The notes beneath the pieces are model-generated. The model did not search any database and was not told where the DNA came from. It saw only the letters and a program-made list of their open reading frames with translations. Positions 25,660 to 63,016 of a DNA stretch of 64,000 nucleotides are shown here, in pieces. The number at the start of each line of letters is the position of its first letter. Position 1 is the first letter of the stretch. The stretch is from an uncultured Candidatus Berkelbacteria bacterium (GTDB lineage Bacteria; Patescibacteriota; UBA1384; XYA2-FULL-43-10; CAINNR01): the NCBI GenBank assembly GCA_903851235.1, contig CAINNR010000032.1, positions 25 to 64,024 of the forward strand. Direction: 5' to 3'. The translations under genes were made by a program, and so were the position numbers.

Positions 25660-28344
25660 TTATTTCGAAGTATATTCTTTACTATCCCGCTCCTCAATCA
25701 CCGCTTGGGCAGCGGCCAGGCAAGCGATCGGTACTCTAAATGGTGAGCAGGAAACATAATCCATTCCGGCTCGGTGGCAGAATTTGACCGAGTCCGGATC
25801 GCCACCATGTTCGCCGCAAATACCGATTTTCAATTTCGCTTTTACCGATCGACCCTTTTTAATACCGATTTTCACCAATTGACCGACGCCGTCTTGATCC
25901 AAAGTTTGGAACGGATCGGAGGCGAAGATTCTTTTCTCCAAGTAGACTTTGATAAATTTGCCGGCGTCGTCACGGGAGAAACCCATAGTCATTTGGGTCA
26001 GATCATTGGTACCAAAGGAGAAGAACTCGGCGGCTTCGGCGATCTTGTCGGCGGTAATTGCTGCTCGTGGCACTTCAATCATCGTACCAACCAGATATTT
26101 AATTTTTAGGCCGTAAGCTTTCATTGTCTCGTTGGCGACTCGGTCAATTATTTCACGCTGATCACGAAATTCGGCAACATCGCCAACCAATGGCACCATA
26201 ATCTCCGGCACGATTTTAATACCCTTCTTCTTCGCCAGTTCACAAGCGGCGGAAATTATTGCCTTTGTTTGCATTTCGGTTATTTCAGGATAAGTGATTC
26301 CCAGACGGCAACCGCGATGGCCGAGCATCGGATTAAATTCGTGCAAATCTTCGGTTTTCTGCCAGATGGTTTTGGCATCAATACCAATTTTCTGTGACAG
26401 CTCCTTGGCTTCTTCTTTGGTTTTTGGCAAAAATTCATGAAGCGGTGGATCAAGCAGACGAACGGTGACGGCGAAACCTTTCATTTCTTCAAATAATCCG
26501 AGAAAATCGGCTTTCTGAAACGGCAAAAGTTTTTCCAGCGCCGCTTGGCGATCAGCAAGGTCCTCAACCAAAATCATCTTTTGCATCAATGGTAATCTGG
26601 CGGCGTCAAAGAACATGTGCTCGGTGCGACAAAGTCCGATTCCTTCAGCGCCGAATTCGGCGGCAGTTTTAGCGTCGCGCGGAATGTCGGCGTTGGAGCG
26701 GACTCTAAGGCGTCGTGTCTTGTTGACCCAGCCCATCAAAGTGCCAAAATCTCCGGAGAGTTTGGCTTCAATCGTTGGAACTTGACCCAAAATGACTTCA
26801 CCGGTCGAGCCGTTGATTGAAATCCAATCACCGGCTTTGACGGTTTTGCCAGCGACAACCATTTTGCCGTTTTTTTCGTCAACCTTAATGTCTTCGCAGC
26901 CGGCGACGCAACACTTGCCCATGCCGCGAGCGACAACGGCGGCGTGCGAGGTCATCCCACCCCTGCCGGTCAGTATTCCTTGGGCAACTTCCATGCCGGA
27001 AATGTCGTCCGGACAGGTTTCGGTCCGGACCAAAATCAGTTTTTCCTTTTCCTTTTTGACCGCGTCTTCGGAGCTAAAAACTACTCGACCGACAGCGGCA
27101 CCGGGAGAAGCCGGCAGTCCGCTGGCAACAACGTCATATTTTACCTTGGCGTCGAAAACCGGATGCAATAGTTGATTCAAACTTTCTGCTTCAACGCGCA
27201 TGATTGCCTGATCAATCGTAATCATCTTTTCGCCTACCATATCAACGGCGATTTTAACCGCCGCCTCGGCCGTTCGCTTGCCGGTTCGGGTTTGTAACAT
27301 ATATAATTTGCCCTGCTCGATGGTAAATTCAAAATCCTGAATATCTTTGTAGTGTTGCTCCAAATTATCAGTGATTGATTTTAATTCGGCGAAAGCTTTC
27401 GGCAGGTCTTTTTTCAACTCCAAAATCGGTTTCGGCGTTCGAATTCCGGCAACGACATCTTCGCCTTGAGCGTTGGTCAAATATTCACCGTAAAATTCCC
27501 TGGCTCCGGTTGATGGATTTCTGGTAAAGCCGACACCGGTGGCGCAATCATTGCCCATATTGCCAAAAACCATCGCTTGAACATTTACCGCCGTTCCCAG
27601 ATCATCGGCAATCTTATTCATCCGTCGATAGGTGAAAGCTCGCGGATTATTCCAGCTTTTAAACACTGCATCCCTTGCCATATCCAATTGGACCCCAGGG
27701 TCTGTTGGGAATTCACGGCCGGTACGCTTTTTAACTAGCTCTTTGTACCTGCGAATTACGATATCCAAGTCATCTTCGCGAAGCTCGGTATCCAATTTAA
27801 TTTTCGCGCTGTCTTTTACATGATCCAAAATTTCCTCAAACAAAGCTTTTTCAACTTCTAAAACAACGTCGGAGAACATTTGAATAAATCGGCGATAAGC
27901 GTCCAGGGCGAAACGACGATTTCCGGATTTTTCCGCCAATGCCCTGACTGTTTCCTCATTTAATCCCAAGTTCAAAATTGTGTCCATCATTCCCGGCATC
28001 GAAAATTTTGCCCCGGAACGAACTGAAACCAAAAGCGGATTTTCCGCATCGCCGAACTTCTTATCGACAGCTTTTTCCATTTTAGCAATCGCCTTTTTGT
28101 ATTCGCTGTCAAAACCTGTTGGCATTTTGCCCTTGTTATCGGAGAAATAATTGCAAACTTTAGTCGTGATTGTAAAACCCGGAGGAACCGGAACGCCTAA
28201 ATTATCCATCTCCGCTAAGTTAGCACCCTTGCCACCCAGAAGATCCTTCATTTTGCCGTTTCCCTCGGCTTTTTTGCCACCGAAAGAGTAAACCATTTTT
28301 TTTCTATCCGTTGCCATTTTTCTCCTATAAAATAAAAATCCCAA
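25660..28344 (-). CDS. ppdK: Pyruvate, phosphate dikinase.
   Basis: 894 aa. Phosphohistidine loop 'GGMTSHAAVVARGMG' plus PEP-utilising and ATP-grasp regions. Confidence 0.93.
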   Translation of the reverse strand: MGFLFYRRKMATDRKKMVYSFGGKKAEGNGKMKDLLGGKGANLAEMDNLGVPVPPGFTITTKVCNYFSDNKGKMPTGFDSEYKKAIAKMEKAVDKKFGDAENPLLVSVRSGAKFSMPGMMDTILNLGLNEETVRALAEKSGNRRFALDAYRRFIQMFSDVVLEVEKALFEEILDHVKDSAKIKLDTELREDDLDIVIRRYKELVKKRTGREFPTDPGVQLDMARDAVFKSWNNPRAFTYRRMNKIADDLGTAVNVQAMVFGNMGNDCATGVGFTRNPSTGAREFYGEYLTNAQGEDVVAGIRTPKPILELKKDLPKAFAELKSITDNLEQHYKDIQDFEFTIEQGKLYMLQTRTGKRTAEAAVKIAVDMVGEKMITIDQAIMRVEAESLNQLLHPVFDAKVKYDVVASGLPASPGAAVGRVVFSSEDAVKKEKEKLILVRTETCPDDISGMEVAQGILTGRGGMTSHAAVVARGMGKCCVAGCEDIKVDEKNGKMVVAGKTVKAGDWISINGSTGEVILGQVPTIEAKLSGDFGTLMGWVNKTRRLRVRSNADIPRDAKTAAEFGAEGIGLCRTEHMFFDAARLPLMQKMILVEDLADRQAALEKLLPFQKADFLGLFEEMKGFAVTVRLLDPPLHEFLPKTKEEAKELSQKIGIDAKTIWQKTEDLHEFNPMLGHRGCRLGITYPEITEMQTKAIISAACELAKKKGIKIVPEIMVPLVGDVAEFRDQREIIDRVANETMKAYGLKIKYLVGTMIEVPRAAITADKIAEAAEFFSFGTNDLTQMTMGFSRDDAGKFIKVYLEKRIFASDPFQTLDQDGVGQLVKIGIKKGRSVKAKLKIGICGEHGGDPDSVKFCHRAGMDYVSCSPFRVPIACLAAAQAVIEERDSKEYTSK

Positions 28345-28725
28345 TTTTCAAGGTTCAATTTTCAGGAAGTTCCCAATGATTAAATTGCTAAAGACAAAAA
28401 ATTGAAGATTTTAAATTGAAAATTTGTTGATTAATTATTTCCAATTTAGCAAAAAATTTGATATAAATCAAATAAGACCAATACCTAGGGGGCAATTAGA
28501 TGATAAAGGCAAGCGTTCGCAGGATGATATTAAGGGCGATAAGGGCGACAACGCCAGCTGTTTGTTCATCAGCCGTGACAACTCGAAGTTTCCCAGCTTC
28601 CGATTTGAAAACACTGCCACTAAGTCCGCGGTTGGTTGTTGATGCAAGAGTTGCATTCTCAACGAAATCAGGACAGAACACTGAGGTCGCAACGTAGCGG
28701 CCTCATTTTTTTTCCAAAAAAACCC

Positions 28726-28754
28726 TTGACAAGGATAAAAGTATTTGCTATGAT
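28726..28754 (+). promoter_or_regulatory. Perfect-consensus sigma70 promoter driving a structured leader plus the tRNA cluster.
   Basis: TTGACA, 17 nt, TATGAT. Confidence 0.65.
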
Positions 28755-28759
28755 TTATT

Positions 28760-28974
28760 TTGTCGTTTTTAAACGGGAAGGTTGCCAGCGTTTCCTCGGT
28801 AGTGGCTAGACCTCTGGCTACTTGTGACTCTCTTGATTGGGGCAAAGAGTGTCGCCTGCTGTTCCCACCGAGATGTACCTGGCAACTTTCCCGTCCAGCC
28901 AGCTTTGCGTCGCGACCTGCGATCTCTCCCCCCCCCACAGGGGTCGCAGTGTCGCGACGCTTGATCTGTCAGTT
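28760..28974 (+). ncRNA. GC-rich structured RNA (about 215 nt) between the promoter and tRNA-Lys. Function unknown; possibly a precursor leader or a novel ncRNA.
   Basis: Includes a ~20-bp hairpin gcgtcgcgacctgcgatc-[C-rich loop]-ggtcgcagtgtcgcgacgc ending 15 nt before the tRNA. Confidence 0.35.
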
Positions 28975-29050
28975 GAACTCGTAGCTCAGATGGTAGAGCA
29001 GGGGATTCTTAATCCCAAGGTCGAGGGTTCGACCCCCTCCGAGTTTGCCA
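28975..29050 (+). tRNA. tRNA-Lys (anticodon CTT).
   Basis: Manual cloverleaf: acceptor gaactcg/cgagttt, anticodon loop ttCTTaa, T-arm gaggg-ttcgacc-ccctc, encoded CCA. Confidence 0.8.
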
Positions 29051-29255
29051 TCTTAGGGGCAGCCATACATGGTTTGCCCTTTTTTATAACAAGAAAAACC
29101 CATGTCCGTGGGAATGGGGTAAATGATATAGATGCGGCGTAGGCGTAAGTCCGGTTTATCTTATTGCAATAATTTTCCTCAAAACGGAAAATTTCCATTG
29201 CCATATTGACAAATTAATAGTAATTTGCTATACTGTCTTGACAGTGAATGGTGGT

Positions 29256-29340
29256 GCCGGAGTGGCGGAATGGCAGACGCAGGGGACTTAAAATCCCCCG
29301 TCCTCTGGGCGTGAGGGTTCGAGTCCCTCCTCCGGTACCA
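29256..29340 (+). tRNA. tRNA-Leu (anticodon TAA), with a long variable arm.
   Basis: Anticodon loop ctTAAaa, long variable arm, T-arm gaggg-ttcgagt-ccctc, CCA. Confidence 0.8.
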
Positions 29341-29350
29341 ACTTCGTGGT

Positions 29351-29426
29351 GCGCCTGTAGCTCAGCTGGTAGAGCAGCGGACTTTTAATCCGTTGGTCGC
29401 TGGTTCGAATCCAGCCAGGTGCACCA
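29351..29426 (+). tRNA. tRNA-Lys (anticodon TTT).
   Basis: Anticodon loop ctTTTaa, T-arm gctgg-ttcgaat-ccagc, CCA. Confidence 0.8.
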
Positions 29427-29430
29427 AAGC

Positions 29431-29506
29431 GTGCTTGTAGCTCAGTGGATAGAGCAGCGGCCTTCTAAGCCGTTGGTCGGCGGTTCGAATCCGCCCGAGC
29501 ACGCCA
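29431..29506 (+). tRNA. tRNA-Arg (anticodon TCT).
   Basis: Anticodon loop ctTCTaa, T-arm ggcgg-ttcgaat-ccgcc, CCA. Confidence 0.8.
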
Positions 29507-29591
29507 GCACTTATCCTTTTTTCCCAGCCGGACGACCAGAGAGTTGTCCGGTTTTTATTATTGTGCAATAATTATTTTGGAGGTGAACCAA

Positions 29592-29987
29592 GTGGACGAA
29601 CATCCGTGTTACGCTGTAGCTAACGAATGGAGTAGTGCTTGGTTAAATGTTTTTACCGAACAGTTTGAGGAAATTGCAGCGGATATCAAGGGAAGATTCA
29701 GTGTCCGTTATGATGCCAGAATTTGGATGACAACATACGGCAATATCCACGCAGTTAGTTTTGGAGTTAATGTTGAGCGGATTCCAAAAAGCAATTGGTT
29801 TTCCATGCTATGGTCGAGTATAAGCTGTTATGATGTAGAGTTTGTGCGAATTCTACCGCTTTACTCTTCGGATGATTGTTTGACCTTGGCTGTGGTTTGT
29901 AAAAACCCAATAATCTTCGCTTCTATCAGGTCTCACTTCCAAACTCTGGCCGAATCCAAGGGTGTTCGGCTCAACTATCTGTTTTAA
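29592..29987 (+). CDS. Hypothetical protein, GC-richer than the host DNA.
   Basis: GTG start (VDEHPCYAVANEW...) after GGAGGTGAacca. It lies directly downstream of the tRNA cluster. Confidence 0.45.
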   Translation: MDEHPCYAVANEWSSAWLNVFTEQFEEIAADIKGRFSVRYDARIWMTTYGNIHAVSFGVNVERIPKSNWFSMLWSSISCYDVEFVRILPLYSSDDCLTLAVVCKNPIIFASIRSHFQTLAESKGVRLNYLF

Positions 29988-30082
29988 TCGATCCGTCAAT
30001 CGCCACTGATTTGCCGGTTTTCTTTTTGTCGAAAATTTGGTACTATAATACATAGTATATATCAGCACTTGTCTGGGAGGTG

Positions 30083-30424
30083 ATGGCTGTGAGCAAACTG
30101 CTCGGTCCGGACGATTGTGATTGCCTATGTCAGGGAGATACTCCGATCAAAATGGTTCAGGCTGTAGTCTGTTGTAGACGATGTCAAATTTGTGGAAGAA
30201 ATATCTGCACTGGCGCTTTCACACAGCACAAAGAACAATGCGGCGTATCGTCTGCAGAGAGGGAACAGGTGAATCTTCGTGATCGACGTCATTGCGGTGC
30301 CCATGTTGACGGCTTTGACCCGGATCCGTTGGCATTTTTAGCTGGTGTTAATGTTGATGAGTTGACCGGTAAAAAAGTTCGACTTCTTCGGCGATTAGTC
30401 AGAATTTTATTTGGAGGCAAATGA
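30083..30424 (+). CDS. Small Cys-rich (putative zinc-binding) protein, GC-rich.
   Basis: CDCLC...CCRRCQICGRNIC... SD GGGAGGTG precedes the ATG. Terminator at 30431-30458. Confidence 0.5.
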   Translation: MAVSKLLGPDDCDCLCQGDTPIKMVQAVVCCRRCQICGRNICTGAFTQHKEQCGVSSAEREQVNLRDRRHCGAHVDGFDPDPLAFLAGVNVDELTGKKVRLLRRLVRILFGGK

Positions 30425-30694: not shown

Positions 30695-32641
30695 ATGGGA
30701 AAGATTATCGGGATTGATCTTGGAACGACTAATTCGGCGGTTGCGGTAATGGAAGCCGGTGAAGCAAAAATTATTTCGACCTCAGAGGGTGGCAGAACTT
30801 GTCCGTCAGTTGTCGCCGAAAATAAAAAAGGCGAACGGCTGGTTGGTCAGTTGGCGAAACGTCAAGCGGTAACCAATTCGGAAAACACAATTTTTTCCGT
30901 TAAGCGTTTCATTGGTCGCAAATTTGATGATAAGGAATCACAGGACGATTTGAAAAAAATGCCGTATAAAACGATGAAAGCCGCCGACGGTTCGATTCGA
31001 GTCGTAATGAACGGCAAAGAGTATTCTCCTCAGGAGATTTCCGCCTTTATTTTGCAAAAATTAAAAACCGATGCCGAAACTTATCTTGGCGAAAAGGTTA
31101 CCGAGGCGGTTATTACCGTGCCGGCATATTTTAATGACTCGCAACGTCAGGCGACCACCGATGCCGGTAAAATTGCCGGGCTCGACGTAAAACGAATTAT
31201 TAACGAACCGACTGCCGCTGCGCTAGCTTACGGCCTGGAAAAGAATAAAAGTGAGAAAATCGCCGTTTACGATTTGGGTGGTGGAACTTTTGACATCACA
31301 ATTCTGGAGTTAGGCGACGGAGTTTTTGAGGTTAAATCAACCAATGGTGACACTCATTTGGGTGGTGATGATTTTGATCAGACAATCATGGATTACATCA
31401 TCGACGAATTTAAAAAGGATCAGGGTGTCGATTTGCATAATGATAAAGCGGCGATTCAGCGAGTTAAGGAAGCGGCGGAAAAAGCCAAGATCGAACTTTC
31501 CTCTTCAAACGAAACTGAGATCAACTTACCGTTCGTTACCGCTGACGCAAACGGTCCGAAACATCTGCAACTAAATCTCACACGCTCAAAACTTGAACAG
31601 TTGGTGGGAAATTTAATTGAAAAATCTTTGGTCCCATGCGAAAAGGTACTGTCGGACGCCAAACTTACGATTAAAGACATCGACGAAGTAGTTTTGGTTG
31701 GCGGTCAGACTCGAATGCCGGCGGTTCGTGCCGCTGTCAAAAAGTTTTTTGACAAGGAACCAAATCACTCGGTTAATCCGGACGAAGCGGTGGCTCTTGG
31801 CGCCGCGATTCAGGCCGGCGTGCTTGGTGGTGAAGTCAAGGACCTTCTGTTGTTGGATGTTACGCCGCTGTCGCTTGGAATTGAAACTTTAGGTGGTGTT
31901 AGCACCAAGTTAATCGAGCGAAATACAACAATCCCAACATCGAAATCGCAGGTTTTTTCAACCGCGGCCGATAATCAAACTCAAGTCGATATTCACGTTT
32001 TGCAGGGAGAGCGCGAAATGGCGGCTGATAGTAAAACCCTTGGCCGATTCATCTTAGACGGCATTCCACCGGCAGCGCGCGGTATTCCGCAAATTGAGGT
32101 TACTTTTGATATTGATGCCAACGGAATTGTCAATGTTTCCGCCAAAGACAAGGCGACCGGCAAAGAGCAAAAAATTACCATTACGGCGTCGTCCGGTTTG
32201 TCGAAAGAGGAAATTGAAAAGATGACGAAAGATGCTGAAGCTCACGCCGATGAAGATAAGAAAAAACGCGAGTTGATTGAGGCAAAAAACATGGCTGAAA
32301 GTTTAGTATATACTGCCGAAAAGACGATCAAGGATGCCGGTGACAAAGCCGATTCGAACAAAAAATCGGAAGTTGAAGAAAAAGTTAAAGCTTTGAAAGA
32401 TGTGATGAACGAGGAAAATGCAGAGGTGATCAAAAATGCGACTGAAGCATTATCAGCCTCACTTCAGGAGTTGGGTGCATCGATGTACAAACAGGCCGAA
32501 GCGGAACAACAAACATCCGCAGCCGGCGAAAAATCATCCGAAGAAACTTCAAACCAATCATCGAAGGGAAAGTCGACCGAGGAAACACCAGCAGAAAATA
32601 CAGACGAAAATGAAGCAAATAACTCCAATGGGACCAACTAG
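30695..32641 (+). CDS. dnaK: Molecular chaperone DnaK (Hsp70).
   Basis: 648 aa. '[14 protein letters not shown]' and 'DLGGGTFD' signatures. Confidence 0.95.
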
Positions 32642-37337: not shown

Positions 37338-37413
37338 GGGGTCGTAGTGTAGTGGTTATCACGTCTCCCTGTCACGGAGAAGATCGCCGGTTCGAGTCCG
37401 GTCGACCCCGCCA
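37338..37413 (+). tRNA. tRNA-Asp (anticodon GTC). It marks the left boundary of the cassette array.
   Basis: Acceptor ggggtcg/cgacccc, anticodon stem-loop tctcc-ctGTCac-ggaga, T-arm ccggt-tcgagtc-cggt, discriminator g, CCA. A TTGAAT-17-TAAAGT promoter lies upstream. Confidence 0.85.
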
Positions 37414-37476
37414 TTAAAATTAGTCGCTATCAGAGCGTCTTTTTTTGTATCAGGCAGACCGGATGCAGAACTTTTG
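37411..37476 (+). repeat. Boundary element E0: the tRNA-Asp 3' end, its downstream hairpin, T-tract and the right inverted repeat. This is the template that every later boundary element copies.
   Basis: ccattaaaattagtcgctatcagagcgtctttttttgtatcaggcagaccggatgcagaacttttg. Confidence 0.75.
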
Positions 37477-38245: not shown

Positions 38246-38273
38246 CGATAACAAAAAACGGCTAGCAATTGAT

Positions 38274-38370
38274 CAAAAAAGTTCTAACATCGTTCGCTAT
38301 TTCCCGCCAGCAAACCGAATGATGTTAGAACTATTCGGTTTAATCGCTCTAGAAGCGATTTTTTTGTTGT
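38274..38370 (+). repeat. Boundary element E1: perfect 11-bp inverted repeats, a tRNA-3' mimic and a terminator.
   Basis: caaaaaaGTTCTAACATC-gttcgctatttcccgcca-...GATGTTAGAAC, then aatcgctctagaagcgattttttt. Confidence 0.8.
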
Positions 38371-38723: not shown

Positions 38724-38830
38724 CCGCGCCCCCGCTAGGGCAGGTCACAAACCCATCCCCAATACTCTTCAGTTGCGGGGAAGGACCAGAGCAATCAAAA
38801 CATTGATTTTTCTGGTCCTTTTTTAAATCA

Positions 38831-38931
38831 CAATAGTTCTAACGTCATTCGCTATCTCCCGCCATTTAAATTAGTCGCTCTTATAGCGTCTATTTTTTGT
38901 TACGGCAGACCGAATGTAGAACTTTTTATTG
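38831..38931 (+). repeat. Boundary element E2.
   Basis: caatagttctaac...cgctatctcccgccattt...agtcgctcttatagcgtctattttttgttacggcagaccgaatgtagaacttttt. Confidence 0.8.
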
Positions 38932-43888: not shown

Positions 43889-43911
43889 CTTGTGCACTCA
43901 TCATAAAATAA

Positions 43912-44060
43912 ACTGGTTCTGACATCATCCGCTATACCTCGCCATTTTGCCCGGGTCTAGCGGAGGGCGTTAGAACCGGAGGAATAATCGCTTTCAGAGC
44001 GGTTATTTTTGTTTTTACAAGTACAAAATTATTTCACAAAATAGATGTTAGAACTAAAAA
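43912..44060 (+). repeat. Boundary element E7: an extended form with two right-IR copies.
   Basis: ggttctgacatcatccgctatacctcgccatttt...gcgttagaacc...aatcgctttcagagcggttattttt...atagatgttagaact. Confidence 0.7.
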
Positions 44061-44709: not shown

Positions 44710-44738
44710 TTGACTTTTGAGTCTGAATATGATATTAT
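44710..44738 (+). promoter_or_regulatory. Promoter of cassette 9, followed by a ~185-nt structured leader.
   Basis: TTGACT, 17 nt, TATTAT. The leader contains several hairpins and a strong SD (aaGGAGGcgtttaggATG). Confidence 0.5.
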
Positions 44739-44929
44739 ATAGTAATCTCAGAATAAGCTGATGGGTATCGAATTTCTGGCGTAAATTAAGACAAATATAG
44801 GCACGAGAGTCTTTAAAACTTGTTTTTTAGAGATTCTCCCGCCTGTATAGGCGGCTATCACATAGCTGGGGTACTTTCATCCTCTACCCCTGAAGCCTAG
44901 AGCTTAAAGCTACAAAGGAGGCGTTTAGG

Positions 44930-45460
44930 ATGAACGCCAGCAAAGTGATTAGAATGCAGTTGACCAAAAGAAGGCTTCCGGCCGTGTGGGAGCGCGGCGG
45001 TTACACTGGCATCAGTATTGACAGTGAGCCAGTGGGTATTGGGATCGTCTGGGCTAACCCGGATGGTATGCCCTATCGCCCATATTTCATTCAGGACACC
45101 GAACCGAACGACCAGCAGGCATTGGTTCCTGTCGAGAACGGGAGCTGGATGGTCGTTGCGAGACAGTGGCATCCTGGTAGATTCAACTATGAGGTCTGCC
45201 AGGTTACCGATGTTCGCACCGATCCAGACTCGTACGGCTTGTCTTTGAGTGAAGTGTTTCAGATGACCGATGGTGAGCCAGACTATCAGTGGCGTCATGA
45301 ATGGCTCAGCTGTTGGTCTCAACAGAAGTCGCACGGCCACCCTCAATCCGTGATCTCAGCCGTACCCATCACACTGAAGGCGGCTATCGACGCCGCCCTG
45401 GCCAAATGCCAGTGCCCGGGTTGCAGGGAAGCACACTATGTGCTGCCTCGCAAGAAGTAG
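44930..45460 (+). CDS. Cassette 9: GC-rich hypothetical protein.
   Basis: 176 aa with a strong SD and no family recognised. Confidence 0.55.
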   Translation: MNASKVIRMQLTKRRLPAVWERGGYTGISIDSEPVGIGIVWANPDGMPYRPYFIQDTEPNDQQALVPVENGSWMVVARQWHPGRFNYEVCQVTDVRTDPDSYGLSLSEVFQMTDGEPDYQWRHEWLSCWSQQKSHGHPQSVISAVPITLKAAIDAALAKCQCPGCREAHYVLPRKK

Positions 45461-48136: not shown

Positions 48137-48165
48137 ATTGACACACTTGGCACTTTTTGTTATAG
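48137..48165 (+). promoter_or_regulatory. Perfect-consensus promoter of cassette 15, duplicated at 62890-62918.
   Basis: aactaTTGACA-cacttggcactttttgt-TATAGT-gatttgcgaagac. The 46-bp segment 48133-48178 is almost identical to 62886-62931. Confidence 0.7.
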
Positions 48166-48196
48166 TGATTTGCGAAGACAGAATCCTGAAAGGATG

Positions 48197-48712
48197 TGTT
48201 TGTTTATGTCCTGCGGATGTCCGAGACCGTTGCTACTAGATGTTGATCTGCCGTTTCTGATCGAGACCGTCTTACCCCACGTGCTGGCCGAGGTTGCCAG
48301 AGTCAGCGACATGCGAGATCGAGAGGGTGGCATGTTCGTGTTGATGCGAGCCGTCACCGGCGAGATCATCGTCGGCCCGAAGCAGGTCGGCCAGATTAAC
48401 AACGGTAAGGAAGATAAGTACGCCGAGTTCGCTCAGGAGAAACCGGTTCGGCTCCTCGAACACCCAGATCACTGTCTGAGCTGGGAGAGTCGAGATCCGG
48501 ACAACAACAAGTGGGGTGGCGCCGTCAATGATGGCCTCTTCGTCTGGTCCTTCTCCGGACTCTCGGAGGAACAGGACGAAGCGCTCGTGCTGATGGCATC
48601 CCATCTCTGCGGCCGCATTCGCAACGGCGACCCCAAGGCAATGGCAGAGATTTCCAATAACAGAATCATCATCGACAATCCCTACCTCTTCTGGTGTCCT
48701 CGGGAGAGTTAG
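48197..48712 (+). CDS. Cassette 15: GC-rich hypothetical protein.
   Basis: About 170 aa (MCLFMSCGCPRPLLLDV...). The start is ambiguous between ATGs at 48197 and 48209; the track uses TTG at 48170. Confidence 0.5.
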   Translation, partial: CLFMSCGCPRPLLLDVDLPFLIETVLPHVLAEVARVSDMRDREGGMFVLMRAVTGEIIVGPKQVGQINNGKEDKYAEFAQEKPVRLLEHPDHCLSWESRDPDNNKWGGAVNDGLFVWSFSGLSEEQDEALVLMASHLCGRIRNGDPKAMAEISNNRIIIDNPYLFWCPRES

Positions 48713-62889: not shown

Positions 62890-62918
62890 TTGACATGCTA
62901 GGCACTTTTTGTTATAGT
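62890..62918 (+). promoter_or_regulatory. Second copy of the perfect-consensus promoter (see 48137-48165).
   Basis: aactaTTGACA-tgctaggcactttttgt-TATAGT-gatttgcgaagac. Confidence 0.7.
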
Positions 62919-63016
62919 GATTTGCGAAGACGAACACCAACACGGGAGGCTTGAAAATGCCATTGGCAAAAGGACTTATAACTAAGCGTGGTGGCTCGCC
63001 GGTATCAGTATAAGAA

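Follow-up and report, generated by a model that had tools for sequence, protein, structure and literature searches.

A long hairpin-rich leader upstream of tRNA-Lys(CUU) in a Berkelbacteria-like bacterium: a candidate structured 5' external transcribed spacer

The locus and its transcription units

We describe a predicted RNA leader of about 213 nt that precedes the gene for tRNA-Lys(CUU) on contig CAINNR010000032.1 of an uncultured Candidatus Berkelbacteria bacterium (assembly GCA_903851235.1). The whole stretch of DNA analyzed, 64,000 nt from positions 25 to 64,024 of the contig, is called the window, and positions are counted from its first letter; loci fetched for comparison carry numbers with the prefix L. 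Judging from the naming of the nearest non-self relatives of its pyruvate phosphate dikinase (PPDK), which are 83-86% identical and include proteins labelled Candidatus Berkelbacteria or Patescibacteria group by their sources, the host is a Berkelbacteria-like bacterium of the candidate phyla radiation (CPR). A PPDK-anchored scan of GTDB genomes gave, among the matches listed, best relatives of 57-71% identity without synteny. The leader lies in the gap between PPDK and dnaK (Table 1). When the PPDK loci of eleven relatives were compared with that of the window, the gap upstream of PPDK held tRNA genes in all eleven, in differing sets, and extended to dnaK in five; serine recombinase or Fic/AbiEii genes occupied it in three relatives' loci, two of them from one population. 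Because the tRNA sets differ and recombinase or other mobile-element genes sit in the same gap of relatives, the PPDK-dnaK interval is, on this comparison, a hypervariable tRNA island.

A first-pass annotation of the window had pointed to a TTGACA-17-TATGAT promoter at 28726-28754. This promoter (promoter 1) is present, matches the consensus at 11 of 12 positions and carries an extended -10 element. Sites of this kind are frequent in the stretch: seven promoter-like sites were seen where 2.7 were expected, and the pattern TTGACA-N14-TGCTATAnT, with up to three mismatches allowed, matched the window 22 times against 6.8 expected, the PPDK promoter being one of the 22. Promoters of the promoter 1 type also head the tRNA islands of relatives. 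By its sequence, promoter 1 is of the general promoter type of this genome. The tract of T and A residues directly upstream of its -35 element, which doubles as the U-tail of the preceding terminator, may serve it as an UP-like A/T element, and the same arrangement, TTTTTTAAAAAACCC-TTGACAA, is seen in L094.

The tRNA-Lys(CUU) gene has a normal 7-nt anticodon loop and a canonical acceptor stem, a G1-U72 pair, G73, an encoded CCA and a U at position -1. An intrinsic terminator begins five bases after it, and in the fold of the whole unit this terminator stands next to an intact, independent cloverleaf. A simple terminator scan, which lists no terminator within 28706-29525, overlooked it, probably because its stem is bulged. 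The leader was at first taken to be fused to the whole Lys/Leu/Lys/Arg cluster, a view that has to be given up: tRNA-Lys(CUU) has its own terminator, a second promoter drives the Leu, Lys and Arg genes, and the leader therefore belongs to tRNA-Lys(CUU) alone. With a promoter upstream, sequence contiguous with the tRNA and no terminator in between, the leader has the arrangement that defines a pre-tRNA 5' leader at the level of sequence.

Table 1. Positions of the features discussed; window numbering applies unless a locus number is given.
Feature	Position	Strand	Details and basis
Promoter 1	TTGACA 28726-28731; TATGAT 28749-28754	+	17-nt spacer; extended -10 (TGc; TG 28746-28747)
T8-CC-A7-CCC tract	28706-28725	+	Directly upstream of -35; U-tail of preceding terminator
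Predicted 5' leader, ~213 nt	28762-28974	+	Start site inferred from -10 position; end is inferred RNase P site
Domain 1 of leader	28773-28894	+	18-bp closing helix P1 around three-way junction; minimum free energy structure = centroid
Domain 2 hairpin of leader, 21 bp (10 + 11)	28907-28960	+	One bulged U, two G-U pairs near loop
tRNA-Lys(CUU)	28975-29050	+	ARAGORN; Rfam tRNA 63.5 bits
Intrinsic terminator of leader/tRNA-Lys unit	29056-29085	+	GGGGCAGCC...GGUUUGCCC then U6; whole-unit fold and sequence
Unit 2: promoter 2, tRNA-Leu(TAA), tRNA-Lys(TTT), tRNA-Arg(TCT), terminator 29526-29553	29206-29553	+	ARAGORN, promoter scan
Promoter 2	29206-29234	+	TTGACA-17-TATACT, TGc; even better than promoter 1
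PPDK	25660-28317	minus	Pfam PPDK_N, PEP-utilizers
PPDK promoter	28443-28471	minus	TTGATT-17-TAAATT with TGc; ~120 nt upstream of PPDK start codon
Orphan unit between PPDK promoter and promoter 1	28473-28715	+	
dnaK	30695-32641		Translation; syntenic gene of relatives carries PF00012 HSP70
Long-arm tRNA-like RNAs	L081:5615-5768, L082:1-148, L083:5565-5689, L084:5565-5689, L088:4552-4703, L093:702-853	all minus	First gene after island promoter

Structure of the leader

The region 28760-28974 (215 nt) folds with a minimum free energy of -102.6 kcal/mol, compared with -68.1 +/- 4.1 kcal/mol for dinucleotide shuffles (z -8.35; 0 of 200 shuffles as good); an independent shuffle gave z -8.1, and the minimum free energy structure coincides with the centroid structure. 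Its G+C content is 57%, in a genome with intergenic DNA of about 25-35% G+C. The description of a GC-rich structured RNA of about 215 nt directly before tRNA-Lys, given at first pass, is borne out by these values (z about -8).

The larger, 5' domain was missing from that description. Domain 1 is closed by helix P1, which pairs 28773-28791 with 28877-28894 (18 bp, one of them a G-U pair, with one unpaired base) and is followed by U-CCA-G. Its interior contains P2 (28795-28800 with 28867-28872) and the hairpins P3 (28801-28822) and P4 (28824-28855; loop GAUUGGGGCA). Domain 2 is the interrupted hairpin with a poly-C loop that had been noticed before at an estimated 20 bp; it exists, with 21 bp, a 5' arm at 28907-28927, a C9-AC loop at 28928-28938 (C-run 28928-28936), a 3' arm at 28939-28960 and an outer extension spanning 28900-28968. 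Its start had been placed at 28893, about 14 nt too far upstream, and its distance to the tRNA, rightly described as short, is 14 nt rather than 15. Domain 2 would not act as an intrinsic terminator or attenuator, because the bases that follow are UUGAUCUGUCAGUU and no U-run occurs after 28960.

Sequence 28751-28900 folds better on the + strand than on the - strand (-62.5 vs -54.3 kcal/mol); G-U pairs are responsible for the difference, and their strand specificity points to pairing at the RNA rather than the DNA level. Three open reading frames (ORFs) overlap the leader, and their scores are -0.16, -0.16 and +0.05 bits per codon; on this scale real genes read in frame reach 0.20 +/- 0.09 and off-frame sequences -0.10 +/- 0.11 (95th percentile 0.068). 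The leader frames thus score like off-frame sequence, in keeping with the early remark that the transcript contains no credible ORF.

Searches for known families and further copies

With Rfam 15 at gathering thresholds, tRNAs were the only matches in the window, and the leader matched no family. When the threshold was relaxed to E<=10, the sole match in 28755-28974 was Pseudomon-1 (17.8 bits, gathering score 50, E 1.3), over 40 nt in domain 2, which is chance level. The leaders and trailers of relatives gave no Rfam match either, at gathering or at permissive thresholds. The leader is not a tRNA or tRNA-like RNA, given that ARAGORN and the Rfam tRNA model find nothing in 28755-28974. Domain 1 was also considered as a possible degenerate copy of the long-arm tRNA-like RNAs found in relatives (described below), which is not supported: model R1, built from those RNAs, gives them 125-161 bits and ordinary tRNAs 27-65 bits and, at E<=10, does not match the leader. 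Nor does a reverse transcriptase adjoin the leader, as would be expected of the RNA of a retron; its neighbors are PPDK, DnaK and two small ORFs with no significant Pfam match.

A blastn search of the leader and the upstream block (28473-28715) against the window and all fetched loci (94 loci; about 220 kb of relatives' loci) returned nothing beyond chance. Similarity to relatives in blastn was confined to the tRNAs, the promoters of the two genes and the region upstream of dnaK, and even relatives with about 86% identical PPDK had no copy of the leader that blastn could detect. In a metagenome collection searched for exact matches, neither a 22-mer of the leader 5' arm nor a 34-mer of tRNA-Lys(CUU) was found; a viral scan with a 39-mer of the tRNA had no match, and blastn against a phage collection gave generic tRNA similarity only. 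Group I introns occur in tRNAs of Patescibacteria (PMC13011429); a term search of that paper yields no mention of leaders or spacers.

Leaders, spacers and trailers in related lineages

The most informative relative is L092, which has the two-unit layout of the window. Its first unit runs from a promoter through a 123-nt leader (fold z -3.8 to -4.5) and a tRNA-like gene, whose anticodon loop has 9 nt, to a structured trailer and a terminator; its second has another promoter and a Leu(TAA)/Lys(TTT)/Arg(TCT) operon that is 80% identical to that of the window over 258 nt. The two leaders have the 5' arm of P1, AACGGGAAG, in common (the arm reads AACGGGAAGC in the L092 leader), and its ACGGG starts at a similar distance from the -10 box, 19 nt downstream in the window and 16 nt downstream in L092. 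The 3' arm and its flank correspond as well, CUUUCCCG-U-CCAG in the window and GCUUCCCG-A-CCAG in L092 (CUUCCCG-N-CCAG). By simple counting, the chance of a 9-mer being shared at the same offset is about 0.005, to which the matching 3' flank adds. The 75-100 nt or so enclosed by the helix are unrelated between the two, and domain 2 is not found in the L092 leader. An alignment of L081 with the window restricts similarity to the promoter and the tRNA, and a MAFFT/RNAalifold alignment of the window and L088 leaders was poor and is not relied on.

Other lineages show how such leaders can change. Those of L088 and L094 start with GACGGGCC. In L088 the leader is interrupted by a 113-nt element between inverted repeats, GACGGGCCAGAUA...UAUCUG..GGUCCGUC (GACGGG...UCCGUC), where in L081 and L093 it is uninterrupted and about 23 nt long. 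Because it is shared across lineages whose interiors differ, the base of P1 looks ancestral or selected, and the interiors look replaceable.

Structure of this kind pervades the islands. All twelve leaders, spacers and trailers that were folded from tRNA units of six relatives have a G+C fraction of 0.46-0.62 and z values from -2.4 to -11.6; the leader of the window is extreme but not the most so, the lowest value belonging to the L094 trailer (z -11.6). Runs of six or more C are concentrated in them: the 5.9 kb of tRNA-unit sense strand holds five, against 0.11 expected from the rest of the loci (about 45-fold; Poisson P about 1e-7). These runs come from four lineages (one each in the window, L092 and L093, two in L094), and each forms a hairpin loop on the tRNA sense strand, on stems that are mutually unrelated (the L092 stem was recognized by eye). 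L081 has a CUCCUCCCCUGA loop, and the ordinary terminator at L085:157-190 has the loop CCCCCCACAG. Since the C-loop hairpin stands in the leader in the window and in trailers in relatives, composition recurs and position does not. Taken together, this looks like a lineage- or clade-wide habit of filling island leaders, spacers and trailers with GC-rich, near-perfect hairpins that would change quickly in sequence while keeping structure.

Nature of the leader

The reading we favor, with rather more confidence than doubt, is that of a lineage-specific structured 5' external transcribed spacer (5' ETS) of a monocistronic tRNA-Lys(CUU) transcript, which would be removed by RNase P and whose hairpins would act in cis. 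It builds on the promoter match, the fold, the lack of a coding signal, the boundaries of the unit and the comparison with relatives. The first-pass annotation had offered the same reading, an unusually long and structured pre-tRNA leader, as one possibility beside a co-transcribed ncRNA, and had named two discoveries that would speak against it, a known Rfam family for the RNA or a conserved small ORF in homologues. The Rfam searches it called for yielded no known family for the leader, and no conserved ORF appeared, the L092 leader sharing no frame.

In the proposed mechanism, transcription from the consensus sigma-70 promoter with its extended -10 element would begin at a start site predicted from the -10 position and produce a transcript of about 325 nt, composed in order of 11 nt, domain 1, 12 nt, domain 2, 14 nt, tRNA-Lys-CCA and the terminator. 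A putative RNase P cut at 28974/28975, with U at -1, would free the leader of about 213 nt, and the 3' end of the tRNA would be trimmed to the encoded CCA. Any role in processing or stability is conjectural as well; most likely the hairpins would act in cis, where they could keep the spacer folded on itself, without interference with tRNA folding, and could also provide double-strand or endonuclease entry sites or block exonucleases during maturation.

Several points weigh against this reading. A leader of 213 nt is far above the typical length of bacterial tRNA leaders, which leaves room for an independent function. The locus in L095-L097, contigs from other samples, is identical to that of the window apart from scaffold N-gaps, and ENA assemblies ERZ27313102, ERZ18625396 and ERZ18626762 contain it in identical form; the interior of domain 1 is missing from other lineages. 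In unit 2 the leader is about 15-20 nt long and the spacers measure 4-10 nt, so hairpin padding is not a general requirement for tRNA maturation here. Finally, the near-perfect helices of 18-21 bp could equally be explained as young palindromic insertions without function.

A first alternative, which we hold to be unlikely, is that the leader is a co-transcribed small RNA (sRNA) of about 213 nt, released by RNase P, with domain 1 guarding its 5' end and domain 2 stabilizing its 3' end. As a part of this proposal, and just as doubtful, the C-rich loop CUCUCCCCCCCCCAC would pair with G-rich or Shine-Dalgarno-like sequences or bind a poly(C)-binding protein. The architecture is like that of stable bacterial sRNAs, and functional by-products of tRNA processing exist, 3'ETS-leuZ among them; no target was found, however, and runs of five or more G show no clustering at ribosome-binding sites of the window. 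Retention of the P1 base between the window and L092 despite a replaced interior would fit a functional RNA, yet that interior is not conserved even in this closest syntenic relative, and domain 2 is missing from its leader. The recurrence of poly-C or CUCC-type loops on unrelated stems, always in sense, in four lineages and with some 45-fold enrichment also favors it, but the C-loops of relatives lie in trailers and one in an ordinary terminator (L085:157-190), so that the loop may be a mere compositional habit of the clade's hairpins. Targeting of G-rich ribosome-binding sites by the C-loop, considered on its own, found no support in the window.

A second alternative, no more probable than the sRNA, treats the leader as selfish or neutral palindromic DNA that is transcribed only because it landed behind a promoter, in the manner of miniature inverted-repeat transposable elements (MITEs) or of rRNA intervening sequences. 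Both domains would then have been inserted, or locally generated, in a recombination-prone island, domain 1 as a 122-bp element whose terminal inverted repeats measure about 18 bp and domain 2 as a 54-bp palindrome. The setting agrees with this, since the island is hypervariable and relatives carry recombinase and other mobile-element genes in it, the leader that is short in L081 and L093 has received a 113-nt inverted-repeat insertion in L088, and block 28473-28715 and ORFs 29592-30424, which score as non-coding or foreign, are also missing in relatives. The helices themselves are nearly perfect, and the arms of P1 (28773-28791 and 28877-28894, 18 bp) qualify as the terminal inverted repeats of a MITE. 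Set against this, the element is single-copy in the 64-kb window and in the roughly 220 kb of relatives' loci (94 loci), and the metagenome collection contains no exact copy of the 22-mer of its 5' arm. Since a true palindromic family was readily seen at five or more sites of the window, an element in many copies would have been noticed. Nor is there a visible target-site duplication: the two flanks, uuuuuaa|ACGGG and CCCGU|ccagcc, have no duplicated bases in common. Better folding of the + strand through G-U pairs and retention of the P1 base between lineages with unrelated interiors also count against this alternative.

That the leader is instead a small protein gene, either the 74-aa TTG ORF at 28760-28984 or the 46-aa GTG ORF at 28824-28964, is hardly credible, for although open frames are present, they score -0.16 bits per codon, like off-frame sequence, neither start is preceded by a Shine-Dalgarno sequence, the 74-aa ORF (the only one of the two scanned) has no Pfam match, the frames read on into the tRNA and the homologous L092 leader keeps no frame.

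Beyond these readings lies a more speculative possibility, less probable than the sRNA or the palindrome, that the leaders, spacers and trailers of Berkelbacteria tRNA islands carry undescribed RNA modules: a CUCC/poly-C-loop hairpin and a P1-closed domain ending in N-CCA (CCCG-U-CCA in the window, CCCG-A-CCA in L092). Domain 1 might then be an acceptor-minihelix-like substrate of RNase P, released as an RNA of about 120 nt ending in CCA, and the C-loop hairpin, arising as a by-product when the tRNA matures, might act in trans or bind protein. The leader would gain in importance if either module, the recurrent hairpin with a poly-C loop or the P1 domain with its CCA end, turned out to be functional. 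A reduced genome could then draw regulators at little cost from by-products of tRNA processing, and to our knowledge the small RNAs of CPR bacteria appear little studied.

Neighboring sequences and other RNAs

The block 28473-28715, between the PPDK promoter and promoter 1, had been left as ambiguous between a small ORF and RNA (for 28468-28700), and so it stays. Its fold is unremarkable (z -1.2). A candidate extended -10 promoter, TGaTATAAA at 28459-28467, was recognized upstream of it by eye, and a strong terminator at 28682-28705 followed by T8 closes it. A 65-aa ORF (28500-28697, +) has an AGGGGG ribosome-binding site and a non-coding-like frame score of -0.05; an antisense 61-aa frame (28499-28681) scores a coding-like 0.16. 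Homology searches with the two return only themselves and nothing outside this population, and the 65-aa ORF is without Pfam match. L092 lacks the block, its PPDK and tRNA promoters being direct neighbors, and the block looks like another lineage-specific insertion. Within the region of the PPDK promoter, 28439-28473 has weak blastn similarity to the same region of L083, L084 and L091.

On the other side, two + strand ORFs lie between the tRNA operon and dnaK, 29592-29987 (132 aa) and 30080-30424 (114 aa, Cys-rich). Their codon scores are near zero, and they have neither a Pfam match nor a counterpart in relatives; they are either foreign or not genes.

Other tRNA-like genes were noticed in the islands of relatives. 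The long-arm tRNA-like RNAs (Table 1) have initiator-like acceptor, D and T arms, an ACCA end and an anticodon stem that covaries, and a variable hairpin of 50-85 nt replaces the anticodon loop. This insert does not look like a simple intron, because the junctions in L083 and L093 leave only about five unpaired bases. ARAGORN misses these RNAs, and permissive Rfam searches found no tRNA match in L081 (E<=1), none in L093 (E<=0.05) and 47 bits in L088. That they are intron-bearing orthologues of the L085 tRNA-Ile(UAU) was considered and rejected, the sequences being unrelated. Four tRNA genes have anticodon loops of other than 7 nt, L092:4495-4574(-), L093:546-622(-), L085:5340-5414(-) and L088:4146-4220(-), and ARAGORN assigns them "anticodons" of two or four bases; the L092 gene, with the loop GCCACAAAA, occupies the position of tRNA-Lys(CUU) in the window. 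The long-arm RNAs may be a more interesting lead than the leader, and the C-loop hairpins are a lead as well.

Repeats occur elsewhere in the window and in one relative. A 69-nt direct repeat of 83% identity (37407-37475 and 38858-38926, 1451 nt apart) starts in the 3' end of tRNA-Asp (CCCGCCA) and looks like attL/attR of a small integrated element; 38272-38309 and 38827-38864 were noted together with it. A palindromic repeat family is suggested by the motif GGCAGACCGRATGYAGAAC, which is found again, as is its inverse, near 43900-43970, 48100 and 62852. Two nearly identical blocks, each some 80 nt long, lie at 48138-48220 and 62890-62972; both have a promoter-like TTGACA-N17-TTATAGT followed by GATTTGCGAAGAC. 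Between the start of PPDK and the tRNA promoter, L094 has a repeat unit of about 25 nt (GTTCTCGCTTCGCTCGAACAAT / TTGCTTCGCTCGCAATAAC) in four copies (L094:2830-3130(-)). Another promoter-like site of the window stands at 44710-44738, within 44710-44930 (+); the roughly 190 nt after it are strongly structured (z about -4 in a sliding scan) and end at a Shine-Dalgarno sequence and ATG, and this region has no Rfam match.

Comparison with known systems

Several known systems resemble the leader in part. MITE-like repeats (Correia/CREE, ERIC/IRU, Rickettsia palindromic elements, REP/BIME) are like domain 1 in a size of about 120 bp, terminal inverted repeats of about 18 bp and co-transcription with a neighboring gene; domain 1 differs in being single-copy in everything searched, in lacking a target duplication and in its strand-specific G-U pairs. 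Firmicutes sRNAs of the RsaE/RoxS type bear UCCC/CCCC loop motifs and are independent conserved genes with known targets. Domain 2 likewise presents a C-run in a hairpin loop, but here loop composition alone recurs, in leader or trailer, and Rfam gives no match.

Closer in position are the by-products of tRNA operons in E. coli, 3'ETS-leuZ and the internal spacer of metZ-metW-metV, which are short, weakly structured, Hfq-dependent sponges of sRNAs. Like them, the leader is a tRNA-transcript spacer that could outlast processing and have effects in trans; unlike them, it is a long, rigid 5' spacer, known from sequence alone. The processing stems and intervening sequences of rRNA, substrates of RNase III, share with it long near-perfect helices in the spacers of stable RNAs and a sporadic occurrence among relatives (L088 vs L081 and L093). 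The leader flanks a tRNA, whereas processing stems enclose the mature RNA, and its cleavage is hypothetical.

The nearest counterparts are bacterial pre-tRNA 5' leaders, which are usually a few to tens of nucleotides long. As in these, the sequence lies between a sigma-70 promoter and the mature 5' end of a tRNA, is non-coding, has U at -1 and precedes a tRNA with encoded CCA and an intrinsic terminator; it stands apart in its length of about 213 nt, its G+C content of 57% and its z of about -8. By these comparisons it is outside every described RNA family tested and is a long, hairpin-rich form of a known object, the pre-tRNA leader. If the 5' ETS reading is true, the leader would be an ordinary object in unusual form and a small descriptive point on CPR bacteria, in which PPDK-adjacent tRNA islands would turn over fast yet keep their transcribed spacers GC-rich and hairpin-rich.

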